DNA from: a virus
Virus record (IMG/VR): IMGVR_UViG_3300039008_000077
Span: 4,189-68,188 of that record
DNA length: 64,000 nucleotides
Direction: 5' to 3' (one strand)
Under the pieces are notes generated by a model. It did not search any database. It was not told where the DNA came from and saw only the letters and a program-made list of their open reading frames with translations. The stretch's first letter is position 1; each line of letters begins with the position of its first letter. Shown in pieces: positions 4,186 to 61,578 of the stretch. The translations under genes and the position numbers were made by a program.

Positions 4186-4215
4186 TTGACAATGATATAA
4201 GTCTCGGTGTATAAT
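4186..4215 (+). promoter_or_regulatory. Consensus sigma70-type promoter, divergent from gp55, with no long ORF downstream
   Basis: TTGACA (4186-4191), N18 spacer, TATAAT (4210-4215). Confidence 0.7.
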
Positions 4216-41379: not shown

Positions 41380-44300
41380 TAATTGGGTTCCTTTTCCTCG
41401 TCGTTTAGTTTATTTATAAGAATTGAGACAAGCTCTTTCAGATCTTTTACTTCTTCTTCAAGAGCTTCACGTTTTTTCTTTTCTTCATAAAGAGCGGCTA
41501 CGGCATACTTACCGTAATCCATATGTAGAATGCCATTTTCATCCTCATGTACCAACTCAGGCGCTTCTTGTTGAACTTCCTGAGCGACAGGAGTAATGGA
41601 GTTCCGACCAGTTTCCTTCCATGTGATGTCATAGACAACAAGATTATCAATGAGGCCCGGACGATCAATTTCATGGTGAATATTCTTTAGGCTGGCATCT
41701 GAATATGCGGTAACATCACCAGTTGCAGTAAAATCGCCATTGTCATCAAATGTGAATCGGGTAGTCGTACCGTCACGGACATACAGATTGCCCAGATTAA
41801 CATCCATGTATGCATGAGTGCCATCATGAAAAATTTCAAAGTCATCGCCGGTGCCGAATGAACAGACATCATTGTCGTCAAAACTAACACCTCCATTGGC
41901 ACTAATGACACCTGTAACTGAAAGTGCCCCCGGAAGGCTACTGTCGCCACTTCCGTCACAGATAGTGGCAGTATAACGACCTGCCCATCCAGTGGCCCAG
42001 TTATCCGAAGATGAGTTGATTACTAATCCACCTTCGGCGTTGATATAAACACGCTCATCAGTTTGGCCGGTTGCATTTGCCGAAGCTTCACCGGCATTCA
42101 ATACGAGCTGCTGGCCTGTTCGGCAACGGACTTCATCCGCAAATACCCCCGTAGTTGCATATATTTCGGGTACTGTGATTTGGTCGTCTACTGTTAGTTT
42201 ACCATCAGTCGTAAGCGACATTGCGCCTTCAGATCCAGTATGATCAGAATGGCCCCACCAGAATCCACGAGAACTAGAGTTGTTCATTTGGAATGTCATG
42301 GCGAAGCTGTTCAAATCACCATATGTCACGGAGCTATCCATACCAATAGCATAATTCGAGTTATTCCAGACCCGAATCTTGTCACGAGAAGCAGTATTGT
42401 TGTGATCGATGTAATGATTCGCCGCAATTGATATATTGGAATCGAATTCCCATGCGCCGGTAATAGTTGCGGCTTCTGCCTTCCTTGGGAATTCCGATGC
42501 TTCGTAGCTATCTAGAGTATCAGCATCCAGCCCAGATCCAGATCCGTCATTACCAGCGTGCCAAACCTCATTGCCACTTTCGGCATAGATCGCTCCGGGG
42601 GAAGTGAAGCTCCCATCACTATCCTCGAATGTCCAACTATATTCTGTAGAATCCGTTTTGACTGTAATATAAAACCCTAAAGGACTTGCATCTGTTGAAT
42701 AAGAGTGCAAGTAGTTACCAGAAGATCCGCCATGGAGTGTAATGTATTGAGTGCTATTGCGTCCAAAAAGAGGTCCGGTTGTTGTATTTGGGGTATTACT
42801 GTTAACATAGCTAGTAATACCCGAGTCTGCACTAATACGTCCATCCCATGTACTAGACCCATCATTATTCACAATAGCAACAGTTGAGCCATTACCAGCC
42901 CCAGACCGTAAATCTAGAATCGCACCCGTTGATTGATTAGTAACGTATAGGGCGGGGCTTGTGCTATCTCTTCTTACCCATACATAATCATCTGTCGTTG
43001 AGCCAGCTCTTGCGTAGCCCGATCCCTCAACACCATCTAATGTATCGGCATCTAGCCCAGATCCCGATCCGTCATTACCGGCATGCCAATAGTCTGATAC
43101 AGCAGTCCCATTGAAGCTACCAACATTTTTGATGTCATTGCCGCTCATATTAAAATCGGCATATGCGGAAACTTCCGATGTTTTTAATGAGAATACATTT
43201 GTGAGAGCAGTAGCAACTCCTGAAGTTGTGCTGTCTCCCAGTTCAAATATAATCCGAGCGGTTGACGAATCCACATGTGATTCAATTCTAGCAGACGATC
43301 CCGTAGAATCAGGAGTGCCATCTCTGTGATTGAATGTGAGGTTGGCATTTCCATACCCATCATTAACCGTTAGGGCCACTCCCCCAGAACCGTTCCCAGC
43401 TTCGATATATGAACTGCTTGAAATCGATCCTGTTGTGGTGTCATCTGCATCAGATCTTAGGAATTGAGATGCGTGTAGGCCATCCAATAGATCAGCGTCC
43501 AACCCAGATCCCGATCCGTCATTACCGGCATGCCAGAGGGCGTTACCATCAAAGGTAAACGATGATGAGGTTAGAGATAACAACGGATCAGTAGTTAGAT
43601 CAGCCGAATCATTGATAACAAATGTGGAGCTATCTGATGCACCAACAGCCCAATCATCAGTACCCGTAGATCCGACATCAAACCCTACTGTCGGATCTCC
43701 TGCCTCACATCCGATATTGATGATTCCCGTAGACCCAATATCACGCTCGAATCGAGCAATTGGACCATCACTTCCGCCACCTGTGACATAAAGGCCAGCG
43801 CCCGATGATTTATTATCATCGATATGAACAGTGTATGAGGTGGTCCCGAAAGAGCTGCCATTACGCCCAAAAACAGTAGAGCCTTGAATGTGATTATGGA
43901 CATCAGATTCGGTGTCTCCTGCCTCTACCCAAATACCAAGCGCATTTGTGACATCTCCATCCATATTGTCACGGAGATTGATATGTAGACCATACAGGTT
44001 AGTGATCGTTCCGGTAGACGCATTAATATCAACATCGGCTCTTAGGAGATATGCGTTAGAAATCGTGGCTCCGGATGTTGAATCCTGATCAAGAAAACTA
44101 CGTACCCCGTACGCAGAAGACATAGCCTGATCGGAATCGGTAGTCAGCCTGACAACGCCCATTACCCCATAAGCAGTATCTAGTTCGGACCCCGCATTAT
44201 CCATACGAGATTCAAATCTACCACCAAATACAGTAGACCCGTTTGAGTCAGATCCGCCACTGACAGTTGCCAGTCCATTGACGCCATACATGAAGTCTGC

Positions 44301-54932: not shown

Positions 54933-55573
54933 TGGTCGATTTCATTACTGATAGACTGGCAGCTCCTGAAATTGCCCAGTCTATCATCAATCTTAAGGGC
55001 GGGCCTACACGGCTCACAACATATCGTGTTGTTTTGCCAACGCTATCTATTGGAGGCGATGCCATCTCCATGGATGTTCTATGTCGAGGAGCAACGCTTC
55101 CGGGCAAGACAATCAACACAGTTGAACGCCGGACCAACATGAAGCCTATCGAAACGCCTATTGGATTTATCAATACGCCTATTGATATGGTCTTCACTGA
55201 AACCAATGATCATACAGCCAGTCATTATTTTGATCAATGGTTGAGCATGATCATTGATCCGGACACATACTACATCGGCTGGCGGGATGATTTTTCTAAA
55301 GACATCCTGATTATGTCTAATGATGAATCTGGGGTACCGGGGTATATCTGTAAGCTTCGCAATGCATATCCTAAATTCAAGAATCAGATCGATCTGTCCG
55401 ACCTTTCTACAGACACTCTCGCAGAACTACGTGTTCAGTTCGCATATGAGGATTACGAGATTATTGATGGACCCGGTATTGGGGGCGCACAAGACTTTGT
55501 GAGAGCCCTGAGAACCGGCTCTATTCAGCTACCGACTAATGTAATCCGCCTAGCCACCGAAGGATTATTTTGA
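54932..55573 (+). CDS. gp54: Baseplate tail-tube initiator
   Basis: LCRGATLPGK, FDQWLSMI, CKLRNAYPK, LRVQFAYEDY (tube fold). Confidence 0.82.
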   Translation: MVDFITDRLAAPEIAQSIINLKGGPTRLTTYRVVLPTLSIGGDAISMDVLCRGATLPGKTINTVERRTNMKPIETPIGFINTPIDMVFTETNDHTASHYFDQWLSMIIDPDTYYIGWRDDFSKDILIMSNDESGVPGYICKLRNAYPKFKNQIDLSDLSTDTLAELRVQFAYEDYEIIDGPGIGGAQDFVRALRTGSIQLPTNVIRLATEGLF

Positions 55574-57156
55574 TGGATTTTTCTGAAGTAATCGAACAGC
55601 TACGCATTCTTAATGGATATGCCGAAGAGATTAGTAGGGGTCAGATCGATCTTATTCAGATCACGGTAGATCTTGTGGAGCGTATTGATGCCCTCACAGG
55701 AACAGTTGCGGATGGTATTAGTACGGACATTCAAATCGCCAGAGATGAGGCTAAACGAGAGCGACTTAATGCGCTCAAGGACAGCGGCCCACCCGCCGCA
55801 GCCCAGCGCAGAGAGCAGCGACAAATGGACGGCCTGTTGACCTCACTGGTCACGGGCATCGCCACCACAGGTGCTATGATCTATGGTGCCATTGCAGGTA
55901 TTGCTCTGGCAGGCACTCGATTTACATCCGCATTAGATGGTGCACGAGAATCTACTATTGAGCTAGTGTCTGGTGTGCGTGGCATGTTTGGAACGCTGGC
56001 CATGCTTACCAAGCAGTTTAGGGCATTTGCAATGCTCTCGGCTATCGTTGCTACCTTACCTGTATCTGTTCCTCTGATCTTGACCGATTGGGTATCTCGC
56101 CTGTTCAAGCGTGGGGGTGTTGTTACTCAGGCGATAAACGGGTTTCTTAACGGCATTGTCAGATTATTTTCCTCTGTCGGTACCGATATTATGAGGATTC
56201 CGGGAGCCCGAAGACTAGGGTCGTTCTTACATGGGATAGGCCGTGTATTCATGGCCATTATTAGATTCATCGGTGGTGTGGCCGGATTTGTGATTCCGTT
56301 TGGGGGTGTATTGATGCGCATCACCGGTGTGCTGTTTAGGACAGCGGGTAGATTCTCAGGCATTCTTACAATTGTTATGGTTCTGGTTGATGCCATTCGA
56401 GGAGCGTTCCGTGGGTGGCAAGAAACCGGAACTATTATCGGAGCAGTACGTGGTGCATTGCTCGGGGTTGTTGAAGGGTTCTCCAATCTATTTCGGGATA
56501 TGGGTGTATTCCTTGACTGGCTTGTCACTGGTGTTGTAAACCTGATCCCATTCTTTAATAGCTCACAAGCCACAGCAGCCGGTGATGCCGTGAGGGCAGT
56601 ATTTGATGCATTAGCAGATTGGACAACTCGTATTGGAGAGTTCTTCACCGACATAACCATAGCGTTAGGAAGATACTTCCTGAATCCATCCTCTGTAATC
56701 GAGGACATGATGGCCTTTGTGGATAATATGAATGATTCTGTTATCTCATATATGGGTACTGTGATTGACAATGTAGTCCAGTCCATTACTGGTTTCCTGT
56801 CAAATATGGTCAGGGCGGTCGCAAATAGACTTCCCGATTGGGCTCCGGGTAAGAACTCTCTGCTCGCAATGGCAACTAGTATCGATGCGATGGCATCTCC
56901 TACCACAAGCCCTTCAAACTCGACACCAACATCATCTACACCATCAACCAGCCAATCAACTCCGACTGTTACTCCAACGCCACCCACGGCCCATCAAGCA
57001 AGTAATATCGGTATGCGTCCGGCTCATCGTGCACAAATGGTAGCCATCAATGCCCCGACTGTGAATCAGACCAACGTACAAACAAATAACCGGCAGAGCA
57101 CAGTTGTAAGTGCTCCACCGGCTGTACGGGATAATAGATGGGCGACGATCCGCTAA
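55570..57156 (+). CDS. Tape measure protein (gp29-like)
   Basis: Long amphipathic Gly/Ala/hydrophobic helices, S/T/P-rich tail and NAPTVNQTNV...SAPP C-terminus; follows gp54. Confidence 0.7.
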   Translation: MMDFSEVIEQLRILNGYAEEISRGQIDLIQITVDLVERIDALTGTVADGISTDIQIARDEAKRERLNALKDSGPPAAAQRREQRQMDGLLTSLVTGIATTGAMIYGAIAGIALAGTRFTSALDGARESTIELVSGVRGMFGTLAMLTKQFRAFAMLSAIVATLPVSVPLILTDWVSRLFKRGGVVTQAINGFLNGIVRLFSSVGTDIMRIPGARRLGSFLHGIGRVFMAIIRFIGGVAGFVIPFGGVLMRITGVLFRTAGRFSGILTIVMVLVDAIRGAFRGWQETGTIIGAVRGALLGVVEGFSNLFRDMGVFLDWLVTGVVNLIPFFNSSQATAAGDAVRAVFDALADWTTRIGEFFTDITIALGRYFLNPSSVIEDMMAFVDNMNDSVISYMGTVIDNVVQSITGFLSNMVRAVANRLPDWAPGKNSLLAMATSIDAMASPTTSPSNSTPTSSTPSTSQSTPTVTPTPPTAHQASNIGMRPAHRAQMVAINAPTVNQTNVQTNNRQSTVVSAPPAVRDNRWATIR

Positions 57157-57157
57157 G

Positions 57158-57424
57158 CTATTTTTTAGATAGCCAGCCTTCAACGCCAAAGTATGCCGCA
57201 ATGACACCAGCATTTGTAGTCAGGAACATACCACCGAGGCCGGTCTGGGCTGACATCATCTCGGGAGTAACTACTCCGACCGCCATAAGAAGTGCGATCA
57301 TAAACACATATAGTGCATTCACGGAAAACGCAGCGATGGCTAGTCTACGCTGCGTTTTTATTTTGCGTAGCGAAACCGCTACCTCATCCACTGATACATT
57401 ACCATCGTTGTTTAGATCAGTCAT
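57158..57424 (-). CDS. Putative holin-like membrane protein with an N-terminal EF-hand-like loop
   Basis: DLNNDGNVSVDE, then RRLA, two hydrophobic segments and a VIAAYFG motif; start coupled to the upstream stop (ATGACTGA). Confidence 0.6.
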   Translation of the reverse strand: MTDLNNDGNVSVDEVAVSLRKIKTQRRLAIAAFSVNALYVFMIALLMAVGVVTPEMMSAQTGLGGMFLTTNAGVIAAYFGVEGWLSKK

Positions 57425-58091
57425 CGTCGTCAAAGTCCAAATCTGAATTTTGAGAAATCTCGTCTGCATTAGTCCAACGGGCAGCTCTGAAATCCTTCAA
57501 GTTACGATAGACGTAGACCGGAATCTTATGAGCCCGGCCTGTCAGCATTAACTGCTTTATCCACCCTTGAAGGGCCTTGGCCTTATCGTCTGTATGTCCC
57601 ATATCAATATATTCTTCCCAAAATGAATCAATATATACATGAATGCCAGTAGCATAATTCCAGATCGGAAACTCTTCATCCTTAGTAATAAGACGCTCTT
57701 CCTGTTCACCGCCTTGGGATCTATGACCATAGTAGCTGATAGGGACAACCTTATAGTCCCTCTTGACCTTACGGGCATCGAACTCATAGGACACAATAGG
57801 TTCGTGCGAATCCATGTGCGTTTGCATTTCATCCAAAAACGAACTTTGCATTGTACGAGCAAAGGAGATGAACCGATATTCTTCATTCACCAGCTTATTA
57901 ATTGCATCCTTTGACTCCACTGACTTAGGCTTATAACCCATACCACGAGTAACAATACGGGCTTCTGTGTAATCCAGAAGAGCCGGGACCATATAACCAG
58001 AATCAATAATCTGCAACCATTTCTTGGTCATATGGAACATTTTCTCAACCCGAACACCCTCGGTAAGATTTACTAGATCAGAATAATGCAT
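57417..58091 (-). CDS. Putative ADP-ribosyltransferase-like protein
   Basis: MFHMT, FISFAR, EFDARKV...YKVVP, EQEERL pattern; N-terminus MHYSDLVNLTE; late-promoter variant upstream. Alternative start at 58103. Confidence 0.5.
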   Translation of the reverse strand: MHYSDLVNLTEGVRVEKMFHMTKKWLQIIDSGYMVPALLDYTEARIVTRGMGYKPKSVESKDAINKLVNEEYRFISFARTMQSSFLDEMQTHMDSHEPIVSYEFDARKVKRDYKVVPISYYGHRSQGGEQEERLITKDEEFPIWNYATGIHVYIDSFWEEYIDMGHTDDKAKALQGWIKQLMLTGRAHKIPVYVYRNLKDFRAARWTNADEISQNSDLDFDDDD

Positions 58092-58106
58092 ATGAATATC
58101 CATACA

Positions 58107-58144
58107 AGAAAGGCCTGATCATATTTATCAGATCAGGCCTTTCT
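58107..58144. terminator. 14-bp hairpin whose loop holds the gp51 stop and a late-promoter variant
   Basis: AGAAAGGCCTGATC / GATCAGGCCTTTCT; the loop contains GATAAATA on the minus strand (58129-58122). Confidence 0.75.
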
Positions 58145-58316
58145 GTTTCATTTCCGCCTCTTCCTTTTCCACTTGGGCTTCCAGCATACTCAGGTAAATT
58201 TCCCTTTCCCAAGGAACCATTTGCGCCTGTTCATCGAATGCCCATTTATGGTGATAACGCAGTCCGAACATTGTCCGATAATGGTTTTCGAGTGTATTAT
58301 AGGAAAGGCCTATCCG
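58128..58316 (-). CDS. gp51: Baseplate hub assembly protein (gp51-like), in the -1 frame of gp26; not in the ORF track
   Basis: Manual translation RIGLSYNTLENHYRTMFGLRYHHKWAFDEQAQMVPWEREIYLSMLEAQVEKEEAEMKQKGLI; the first ATG (58271) is internal to the conserved region. Confidence 0.8.
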   Translation of the reverse strand, partial: RIGLSYNTLENHYRTMFGLRYHHKWAFDEQAQMVPWEREIYLSMLEAQVEKEEAEMKQKGLI

Positions 58317-59023
58317 AAAAAATTTTGAATACCGACAAGAGGGGTATCATTCTTGGTGGAACATTTTGGGCAAGTCCAGTCCAGATCGATTTTACAGTTC
58401 GGCATGGCGCTCAGGAAGTCACGAATCCCCGTCATCTGCTCGGCATTCATAGATTCAAGAAACTCGTCTTTTTCTTTGTCACTGATATCACTAAAGTCAT
58501 ACATGCCATCTGGTGTACGCAATGCAACAAGCATTTCACGGATCATGCCGAAGGCCTGTTCAATTTCTGATGAAGTTTCGGGAATGTTGATCGCAGATGC
58601 TAAGGACGGCCAGCGTAGATCAAGAAGCCAGTTGGGCTGAAGCTCGACTGTATGTTCAGATTCATATTCTTTAAAGTCAGTAACAGTCGCCTCAAGTAAA
58701 TTGATAGTGGCATTATGTTCTGATCCACAGTTTTCACATTCAACAGTGACCGGAACAGTTTCTCCTGCGGATCGAGCACGAACTTGAGTGAATGCATATT
58801 CCATGTCTGCCAGAGGTAGAATATCCAACTCAAGGCCTTCCACACAGGCTTCCAGAGTGTCCCGCATGGCAATGGCCATCTGTGCCTTCTCTTGGGTCTC
58901 GTTGGCCATCAGAAGGGCCTTCTCTTCACCAACAAGGAATGGGCGGTAGCTATGCTTGGTGCCAGTCACCGGAAGAGTTAACTGGTATTTGTAATCAGAA
59001 TTTAGTTTAGGTAGCGTTGACAT
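58310..59023 (-). CDS. gp26: Baseplate hub subunit / assembly chaperone
   Basis: LPKL...YQLTLP, YRPFLVGEEKALL, DMEYAFTQVRARSAGE, CENC and CPKC; start at MSTLPK with a GGAG ribosome-binding site. Confidence 0.92.
   Translation of the reverse strand: MSTLPKLNSDYKYQLTLPVTGTKHSYRPFLVGEEKALLMANETQEKAQMAIAMRDTLEACVEGLELDILPLADMEYAFTQVRARSAGETVPVTVECENCGSEHNATINLLEATVTDFKEYESEHTVELQPNWLLDLRWPSLASAINIPETSSEIEQAFGMIREMLVALRTPDGMYDFSDISDKEKDEFLESMNAEQMTGIRDFLSAMPNCKIDLDWTCPKCSTKNDTPLVGIQNFFG
58316..58322 (-). promoter_or_regulatory. Candidate -1 ribosomal frameshift heptamer T TTT TTC
   Basis: AAT TTT TTC GGA TAG at the gp26 end; the -1 frame is open for 62 codons. Confidence 0.6.
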
Positions 59024-59046
59024 AATATCTCCATAGTGTCTACCTG

Positions 59047-59054
59047 TATTTATG
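59047..59054 (-). promoter_or_regulatory. Late promoter variant (gp26)
   Basis: CATAAATA directly after the gp32 terminator hairpin. Confidence 0.65.
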
Positions 59055-61214: not shown

Positions 61215-61578
61215 TGATAACGTCCTTTTTTCCAAACCAATCAAGGCGAGATGTACCAGTACCTTCGCCATAGGATACAACATCAAGGGTGGTATCCTTT
61301 TCCATAGCACCAAGCCGGTATACTACCACAGAATCTTCTAGCATGTCAATATGCTTTAGCAGATACTCGATGTCAGACTTGGCGTGGACTATGAACTCTC
61401 CGGTAGATTCTTCGTTCACATCGACACAGTATTCGTCTTCTCCCAAGTCAATCCTGACATGCCTACAACTTCGGTGGCCTTCCATTTCGACATTTTGCTC
61501 GGGAGGATTTAGCCATTTAGCCGCTTCTAGGCGGGCTCTGATTTCATCAATTCGAGCCACTGTGACCGGTACCTTCAT
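61201..61578 (-). CDS. Hypothetical protein
   Basis: ORF in the tightly packed small-gene array; start uncertain. Confidence 0.6.
   Translation of the reverse strand: MKVPVTVARIDEIRARLEAAKWLNPPEQNVEMEGHRSCRHVRIDLGEDEYCVDVNEESTGEFIVHAKSDIEYLLKHIDMLEDSVVVYRLGAMEKDTTLDVVSYGEGTGTSRLDWFGKKDVINDSE

Follow-up and report, generated by a model that had tools for sequence, protein, structure and literature searches.

The stretch of viral DNA analyzed here, which is 64,000 nucleotides (nt) long and is referred to below as the window, corresponds to positions 4,189 to 68,188 of IMG/VR record IMGVR_UViG_3300039008_000077 and derives from an uncultured marine T4-like phage. This work concerns two of its coding regions, which resemble genes 26 and 51 of phage T4, and the way in which their products appear to be joined. 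The gp26-type gene is located on the minus strand at positions 58310 to 59023 and encodes a protein of 237 amino acids (aa) when read from ATG 59023; the protein ends with ..GIQNFFG, and the stop codon is the TAG at 58312-58310. It matched PF12322 (T4_baseplate) with an E value of 1.5e-50 and a score of 172.4 bits, compared to a curated cut-off of 24.5, and it also matched phrog_150 (baseplate hub) with an E value of 1.4e-53. No second PF12322 gene was found in the whole 69,973-base contig, which comes from a coral metagenome. A gp51-type coding region begins at the end of this gene, in the -1 frame. A first-pass annotation had proposed that a programmed -1 frameshift fuses gp26 to gp51, and the comparative evidence presented below supported this proposal.

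The 3′ end of the gp26-type gene reads ATT CAA AAT TTT TTC GGA TAG. The slippery heptamer that had been predicted here, T_TTT_TTC, was found at 58322-58316 on the minus strand, and the zero-frame codons AAT TTT TTC (58324-58316) placed it in the correct X_XXY_YYZ register. Re-pairing at this site would be complete, because both phenylalanine tRNAs would pair with UUU (TTT TTT) after a one-base slip, and the zero-frame stop TAG is located just one codon past the heptamer. In the -1 frame, the sequence runs TTT TTT CGG ATA GGC CTT .. and translates as ..FF RIGLSYNTLENHYRTMFGL... Past the two Phe codons, this frame continues without a stop for 62 codons (58131 to 58316, minus strand), encodes a gp51-type tail (RIGLSYNTLENHYRTMFGLRYHHKW..KQKGLI), and ends at the TGA at 58130-58128. 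The extension matched phrog_634 (baseplate hub assembly catalyst) with an E value of 5.3e-21, and the match started at the first Phe of the heptamer. The gp51-type tail is contiguous with the gp26 domain only by way of the predicted shift, which would yield a long form (gp26 plus extension) of 298 aa from ATG 59023 or 317 aa from GTG 59080. The TTTTTTC sequence is three-fold under-represented in the window (3 copies on the two strands versus 9.9 expected), and one of the copies is the gp26 site. The other two are located at 41472-41478 and 61226-61232 on the plus strand. The occurrence of the run at the end of gp26 is therefore unlikely to be fortuitous.

An upstream TGA had been reported to leave the gp51-type frame without a start codon, and this was also found to be the case. 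The -1 frame is closed by the TGA at 58347-58349 (minus strand), eight codons upstream of the Phe pair, so that it cannot be entered from upstream. Between this TGA and the first ATG of the frame (58269-58271, minus strand), we found no ATG, GTG, or TTG, and the sole near-cognate codon was ATA 58313. The ATG is located 17 codons after the Phe pair, would give a product of only 47 aa, and is not conserved. In contrast, the 17 codons upstream of it are conserved, which agreed with the first-pass annotation in that the gp51-like sequence includes a stretch before the first ATG.

The first-pass annotation had suggested that the 3′ ends of gp26 genes be checked for a conserved run and for the -1 register. 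A blastn search of a phage collection with the gp26-gp51 region gave no match, no close relative of the gp26 was found in IMG/VR, and nine distant gp26 proteins gave an alignment that was too divergent for a locus search. A metagenome scan yielded a single close relative, the marine metagenome contig L171, which showed 62% identity in gp26 and an identical TTTTTTC. With tblastn, the gp51-type extension was found in 516 phage records. We assembled a set of 126 distinct junctions of T4-like phages from 160 IMG/VR contigs and nine named phages, namely S-PM2, S-WAM1, Stenotrophomonas phages DLP_6 and Moby, Methylophilales phage Melnitz, Sinorhizobium phage phiM12, Aeromonas phage phiAS5, Acidovorax phage ACP17, and Salmonella phage Marshall.

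A T_TTT_TTN heptamer was present in the same register in 125 of the 126 distinct junctions. The form T_TTT_TTC was found in 84, T_TTT_TTA in 21, T_TTT_TTT in 19, and T_TTT_TTG in 1; the TTA and TTG variants convert the second Phe to Leu (FF to FL) and keep the T run. In every junction, the gp51-type ORF (open reading frame) occupied the -1 frame and was open starting with the run; in many, a -1 frame stop was located directly before it. The zero-frame stop was 0 or 1 codon past the site in the relatives (2 codons in phiM12). The one exception to the heptamer was phage Marshall, a member of the Ackermannviridae, in which the corresponding codons are GAA ATT TTC, which may be a variant slip site. 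In this phage (locus L009, 1480-1660), gp26 ends with GAA ATT TTC ATT TAA, and an unannotated gp51-like ORF (..SESMPWHLDLL..) continues in the -1 frame. The gp51-type ORF is likewise unannotated in S-WAM1 and ACP17, and in Melnitz and phiAS5 gp51 is annotated from an internal ATG as a protein of 40 to 47 aa, leaving out the conserved N-terminal stretch.

The nucleotide choices at the site pointed to conservation beyond what the protein needs. The first T of the heptamer was supplied by five different codons (AGT 55, TCT 29, AAT 19, GAT 9, and GCT 2), all of which end with T; elsewhere in the gp26 genes, 61 to 80% of the Asn, Asp, and Ser codons are T-ending. In addition, internal Phe-Phe pairs in the same genes were most often encoded by TTC TTT (82 pairs), followed by TTT TTT (41), TTT TTC (18), and TTC TTC (13).

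Many of the relatives also carried elements that would act on the ribosome. A Shine-Dalgarno-like (SD-like) GAGG or GAAGG was found 6 to 17 nt upstream of the site in 104 of 114 relatives, where it is encoded by a conserved Glu-Gly pair, and a hairpin was often located 6 to 10 nt downstream, such as the 14-bp stem in S-PM2 (z -4.4). The hairpins differed between clades, so folding energies were compared sequence by sequence. The 48 nt past the site had a mean folding energy of -9.4 kcal/mol in the relatives, compared to -5.9 kcal/mol in control pieces, and 37% had z values below -2.

These elements bear on the best-surviving alternative, which is that RNA polymerase, rather than the ribosome, slips at the site and adds one U in the six-T run, giving an identical product (..NFFRIG..). 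The conserved element is indeed a homopolymer, any base (C, T, A, or G) can occupy the final position of the heptamer, and the run is 7 or 8 T long in some clades (those of the Melnitz type), all of which would be compatible with a mechanism that depends on run length. However, most junctions, including that of the window, have exactly six T, which is short for efficient polymerase slippage. Known cases of slippage by bacterial polymerases involve runs of about 8 to 9 or more. Together with the SD-like elements and downstream hairpins of many relatives, the length of the run made transcriptional slippage an improbable explanation in our view, though the most serious competitor to a ribosomal shift.

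A second line of evidence came from T4 itself, in which genes 26 and 51 are two diverged, separate genes that are divergently transcribed. T4 gp26 (208 aa) consists of the PF12322 domain alone. In T4 gp51 (249 aa), a full PF12322 domain (residues 1 to 201, E 3.9e-52) is followed by a phrog_634-type tail. A hidden Markov model (HMM) built from 42 predicted fusions aligned to T4 gp51 in one piece, from model position 22 to position 282 of 298 and across the junction (..leGlesFf-rialsheslenyyktnfal..), whereas the same HMM aligned to T4 gp26 up to the junction only (..GLKEFFEL). T4 encodes the Phe pair as GAG TTC TTT.

We also examined Klebsiella phage Roth20, Escherichia phages AnYang, PTE-Eco09, and GoldenSnicker, Acinetobacter phage Konradin, and Aeromonas phage Aes508, which like T4 have separate genes 26 and 51. 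The heptamer was absent in all seven of these phages (7/7), and the codons found in its place were GAG TTC TTT, GAA TTC TTT, GAA TTT GTT, and similar ones. Thus, phages that depend on a single gene for both forms have the run, and those with two genes lack it. Both arrangements occur within the Straboviridae, as illustrated by phiAS5 (one gene) versus Aes508 (two genes).

If the tail is made by a shift at the heptamer, the start-less stretch that follows should be translated, and its pattern of substitutions was consistent with this. The closest relative, L171, and the window differ in 29 codons of the tail in the -1 frame; 21 of these differences are synonymous and 8 are non-synonymous. When the remaining two frames are compared, the corresponding counts are 4/27 and 3/29. 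Upstream of ATG 58271, 6 of the 8 window-L171 differences are synonymous. A similar signature was seen in the 61 junctions that lack an ATG in the first 16 codons. In these junctions, entropy was 1.27 at the third codon position versus 0.85 and 0.69 at the first two, 41% of differing codons were synonymous versus 13% and 10% in the shifted frames, and none contained a stop in the -1 frame, whereas 61/61 and 60/61 contained one when read in the alternative frames. These findings supported the view, from sequence comparison, that the tail is under purifying selection and that the stretch before any start codon is translated.

The same data bear on the possibility that there is no fusion and that gp51 is made alone. 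Its translation would then begin at ATG 58271 (47 aa) or at an unconventional start codon, for instance ATA 58313, or ribosomes that had terminated on gp26 would re-initiate. GenBank records annotate gp51 from an ATG that is located five codons past the heptamer and beside the gp26 stop, and coupled re-initiation would be possible in the 43 of 114 relatives that have this ATG. However, the codon at this position, which is the annotated start position in S-PM2, was CTC, CTT, CTA, CTG, TTA, or ATC in 65 of the 114 unique junctions (CTT in the window), and a nearby ATG was missing in more than half of the junctions. The two start codons that the first-pass annotation had named as refuting the frameshift, ATA 58313 and ATG 58271, correspond to GTA and GCC, respectively, in L171, which keeps the peptide and shows coding-type constraint on the upstream codons. 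Therefore, independent initiation at either place is not conserved. Separate synthesis of gp51 would also leave the invariant heptamer, its loss in two-gene phages, and the seamless collinearity with T4 gp51 unexplained, and we consider it even less probable than slippage by the polymerase.

Finally, homopolymer runs are error-prone, and a sequencing error could split a single-frame gene, or gp51 could be a dying remnant; we assign almost no weight to either idea, because the run length and frame relation were the same in contigs of another study, in L171, and in all but one of the 126 junctions collected from isolates and metagenomes, and because the gp51 tail is under purifying selection. 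The other-study contigs span 58107-58700 with 11 substitutions and zero insertions or deletions, which, along with the conservation of the site, excluded an assembly error.

Several observations weighed against a programmed shift at the window site, or at least reduced the force of the evidence for it. We found no convincing stimulatory element there: the stem that follows is weak and closer than the 5 to 9 nt expected of a stimulatory structure, and no SD-like tetramer is present upstream, so the window lacks the GAGG/GAAGG of its relatives. The predicted folding energy of the 48-nt segment that follows the site is only -3.5 kcal/mol, whereas 48-nt segments drawn at random from this region average -8.3 kcal/mol (z +1.26 and +0.66 against controls). 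The small ATAGG/CCTAT stem that the first-pass annotation had pointed to is present (58299-58313, minus strand; 58313-58309 paired with 58303-58299 around a 5-nt loop), but it begins 2 nt after the heptamer and, with a z value of about +1.3, is probably not a stimulator. Thus, the near zero-frame stop was the only local feature besides the heptamer. In the relatives, RNAalifold gave no consensus structure for 41 junctions, and the hairpins differed in place and sequence between clades. The Phe-Phe pair is conserved as protein, too, which means that part of the conservation of the run is at the amino acid level. Lastly, the contig is about 39% complete, and a second, long paralogue could be located elsewhere in the genome.

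Weighing these points, we propose, with a probability of about 0.78, that this phage encodes gp26 and gp51 in a single recoded gene, in which a -1 slip at T_TTT_TTC gives a short and a long form. Of the explanations considered, a -1 shift at the heptamer is the only one that accounts for the conservation of the start-less stretch, the conservation of the heptamer (even where the amino acids change), its loss in two-gene phages, and the collinearity with T4 gp51. The comparisons demonstrate the slip signal with its register and deep conservation, the coding signature of the start-less stretch, and the relationship to the T4 genes; the ribosomal nature of the shift, its efficiency, and the binding partner of the extra tail are inferred.

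In the proposed mechanism, a late transcript would run from an ATAAATA motif (59053) to a hairpin after 58143. The majority of ribosomes would stop at the TAG at 58312-58310 and release the 237-aa short form. A minority, with two phenylalanine tRNAs on UUU UUC within U_UUU_UUC (58322-58316), would slip back one base, read CGG AUA GGC.. for 62 codons, and produce the 298-aa long form with the junction ..GIQNFF-RIGLSYN... The predicted tryptic junction peptide of the long form, which ends with ..FFR, is NDTPLVGIQNFFR. The T4 counterparts of the short and long forms would be gp26 and gp51, respectively, which Leiman et al. (2010, PMC3004832) include among the chaperones of hub assembly. The slip would therefore set the proportions in which two chaperone forms with a common body are made, as in lambda G/GT.

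The limits of the proposed gp26-gp51 unit were defined as follows. The ORF finder opened the gp26-type ORF (59080-58310, minus strand) at GTG 59080, which gives a protein of 256 aa. ATG 59023 is the more likely start, because a GGAG is located 5 nt upstream, an ATAAATA motif is located 24 nt upstream, and the first Met of the homologues aligns there (with residues 20/21 of the 256-aa ORF). The first 20 residues of the 256-aa ORF were disordered in an AlphaFold model and had low predicted local distance difference test (pLDDT) values. The Shine-Dalgarno-like GGAG (59029-59032, minus strand) was read directly. The ATAAATA motif (59047-59053, minus strand) is a putative promoter of the T4 late type and follows the hairpin at the end of the gp32 gene. 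The consensus of T4 late promoters is TATAAATA. GTG 59080 itself sits within this G+C-rich hairpin (GAAGCCGGAGG / CCTCCGGCTTC; about 59090-59055, minus strand). Between gp26 and gp51, neither a T4-type late promoter nor a sigma-70 promoter was seen.

At the other end of the unit, a 13-bp inverted repeat (GAAAGGCCTGATC / GATCAGGCCTTTC) was read directly at 58108-58143 on the minus strand, with arms at 58143-58131 and 58120-58108. The loop holds the gp51 stop codon, and this terminator-like hairpin ends the gp26-gp51 unit; it was not called in a simple terminator scan because it is not accompanied by a T tract. Directly after gp51 is a 228-aa ORF (57417-58103, minus strand) with no Pfam or PHROG match. 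The marine-metagenome contigs of the other study depart from the window at 58107 and rejoin it at about 57443. The strain that they represent lacks this ORF, and the gene is therefore a strain-variable insertion. Farther along, a 528-aa ORF (55570-57156, plus strand) showed weak matches to tape-measure proteins (phrog_58, 8e-6). The first-pass annotation had noted a tape-measure gene about 1 kb away; the distance to gp26-gp51 was as described, but the ORF is on the opposite strand, and two other ORFs are located in between.

The first-pass annotation had likened gp26 and gp51 to the G and GT chaperones of long-tailed phages, and the predicted fold of gp26 gave borderline matches to such chaperones. 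An AlphaFold model of the gp26 of the window was built from 35 sequences and had a pLDDT of 87.7 and a predicted template modeling score of 0.81. In an exhaustive structural alignment against 48,161 representative chains, the top three ranks were occupied by solved tail assembly chaperones, all aligned to gp26 residues 16 to 115 or so: 3fgx (Rbstp2171; Z 8.2, root mean square deviation [rmsd] 4.5, 85 residues aligned), 2ob9 (HK97 tail assembly chaperone; Z 7.1, rmsd 4.5, 89 aligned), and 3klu (YqbN; Z 7.0, rmsd 4.9, 90 aligned). The next unrelated match had a Z value of 4.9. All three proteins have been described as phage tail assembly chaperones (PMC9603447). When the N-domain was modeled separately (pLDDT 82.6), a Foldseek search again placed 2ob9 and 3fgx on top, although the matches were weak (E 0.5 to 0.9, template modeling [TM] scores 0.43 to 0.55). 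Among AlphaFold database clusters, the best match outside the family was a 111-aa phage tail assembly protein (E 0.013, TM 0.61/0.58).

Other searches did not detect this relationship. A Foldseek search of the PDB with the whole gp26 model gave nothing below an E value of 0.5, an atlas search with the N-domain returned PF12322 clusters only, none of the 35 members matched a Pfam Phage_TAC family at E values up to 10, and a comparison of the profile with PDB sequences matched no chaperone family. Taken together, the consistent ranks and borderline scores suggest that the gp26 N-domain may be distantly homologous to the G/GT chaperones, which is a good lead rather than proof, and that the comparison of gp26/gp51 with G/GT may be more than an analogy. 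The gp26 protein also contains two Cys pairs of a CxxC-like type (..CENCGSEH.. and ..CPKCSTK..; residues 110-127 and 227-247, approximately, of the 256-aa ORF) with weak zinc-ribbon matches; the second pair is missing from many cyanophage homologues.

In agreement with the first-pass annotation, our literature search did not reveal any description of a frameshift affecting gp26/gp51 of T4-like phages, although most subscription journals were outside its coverage and the absence is thus unproven. The portion of the 2016 recoding review that was available (PMC5009743) treats G/GT at length and does not mention "T4-like" or "gene 26," and a text search of PMC4066793 gave no match on the efficiency of U_UUU_UUC. 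On the sequence evidence, gp26-gp51 is a well-supported candidate for a new case among the tail-assembly chaperone genes of phages, a class in which frameshifting is known.

If the proposed frameshift is correct, it has several implications. The T4 superfamily would fall under the general rule of frameshifted tail chaperones, and ribosomal slippage would need to be annotated at gp26 in hundreds of phage genomes. Many records either omit gp51 or start it at an internal Met (S-WAM1, ACP17, Marshall, Melnitz, and phiAS5), and the frameshift would account for this. A testable role would be provided for T4 gp26 and gp51, whose function in hub assembly is so far unclear (PMC3004832). In addition, phages with one recoded gene versus two duplicated genes would constitute a natural experiment on the importance of the ratio between the forms.

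The proposal can be compared with three known systems. In the work of Sullivan et al. (2010, PMC3037559), the gp51 proteins of cyanophages and marine vibriophages were noted to lack some 200 N-terminal residues that other gp51 proteins possess, and no explanation was given. The small ORF described in that work is the same as the one examined here. However, that study treats it as a reduced, stand-alone protein, whereas a frameshift would supply the missing 200 residues from gp26 and thereby explain their seeming loss in cyanophages and other marine T4-like phages.

The likeness to T4 extends to both forms. The short form of the window is a PF12322 protein that ends with ..FFG, as compared to ..EFFELL in T4 gp26, and the predicted long form and T4 gp51 are collinear across the junction and have a C-terminal tail in common (..F(K/R)..Y..N..L....YSL....M(I)P.ER..). 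The difference is that T4 uses two diverged genes and no slippery run, whereas the window has one gene with a 62-codon -1 extension, which would give two forms with an identical body.

The third system is lambda gpG/gpGT, for which a review describes a -1 frameshift that is conserved in the tail assembly chaperone genes of long-tailed phages (Levin 1993, Xu 2004, reviewed in Atkins et al. 2016, PMC5009743). The gp26/gp51 pair differs from G/GT in a number of respects: the heptamer is U_UUU_UUC rather than G_GGA_AAG, gp26 is twice as long and has an extra part that bears a putative zinc ribbon, gp26 has no sequence-level match to a Pfam chaperone family, the tape-measure-like gene lies on the opposite strand instead of directly following the pair, and the known role of gp26/gp51 in T4 is hub assembly. 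On the other hand, lambda G yields both a short product and one with a C-terminal extension through a -1 slip close to its 3′ end, and the same is predicted for gp26. T4 gp51, which is essential and whose function is unknown, is absent from the phage particle (PMC3004832), and finished particles likewise contain neither G nor GT. We consider it an even bet that gp26/gp51 represent the G/GT homologues that have so far been missing from the T4 superfamily. If so, the tail-chaperone frameshift would go back to the ancestor of long-tailed phages as a whole, those of the T4 type included. T4 and its near relatives would be a derived exception, with the slip replaced by gene duplication, and gp51 would act like GT, coupling the tape measure protein gp29 to the initiation of the tail tube.

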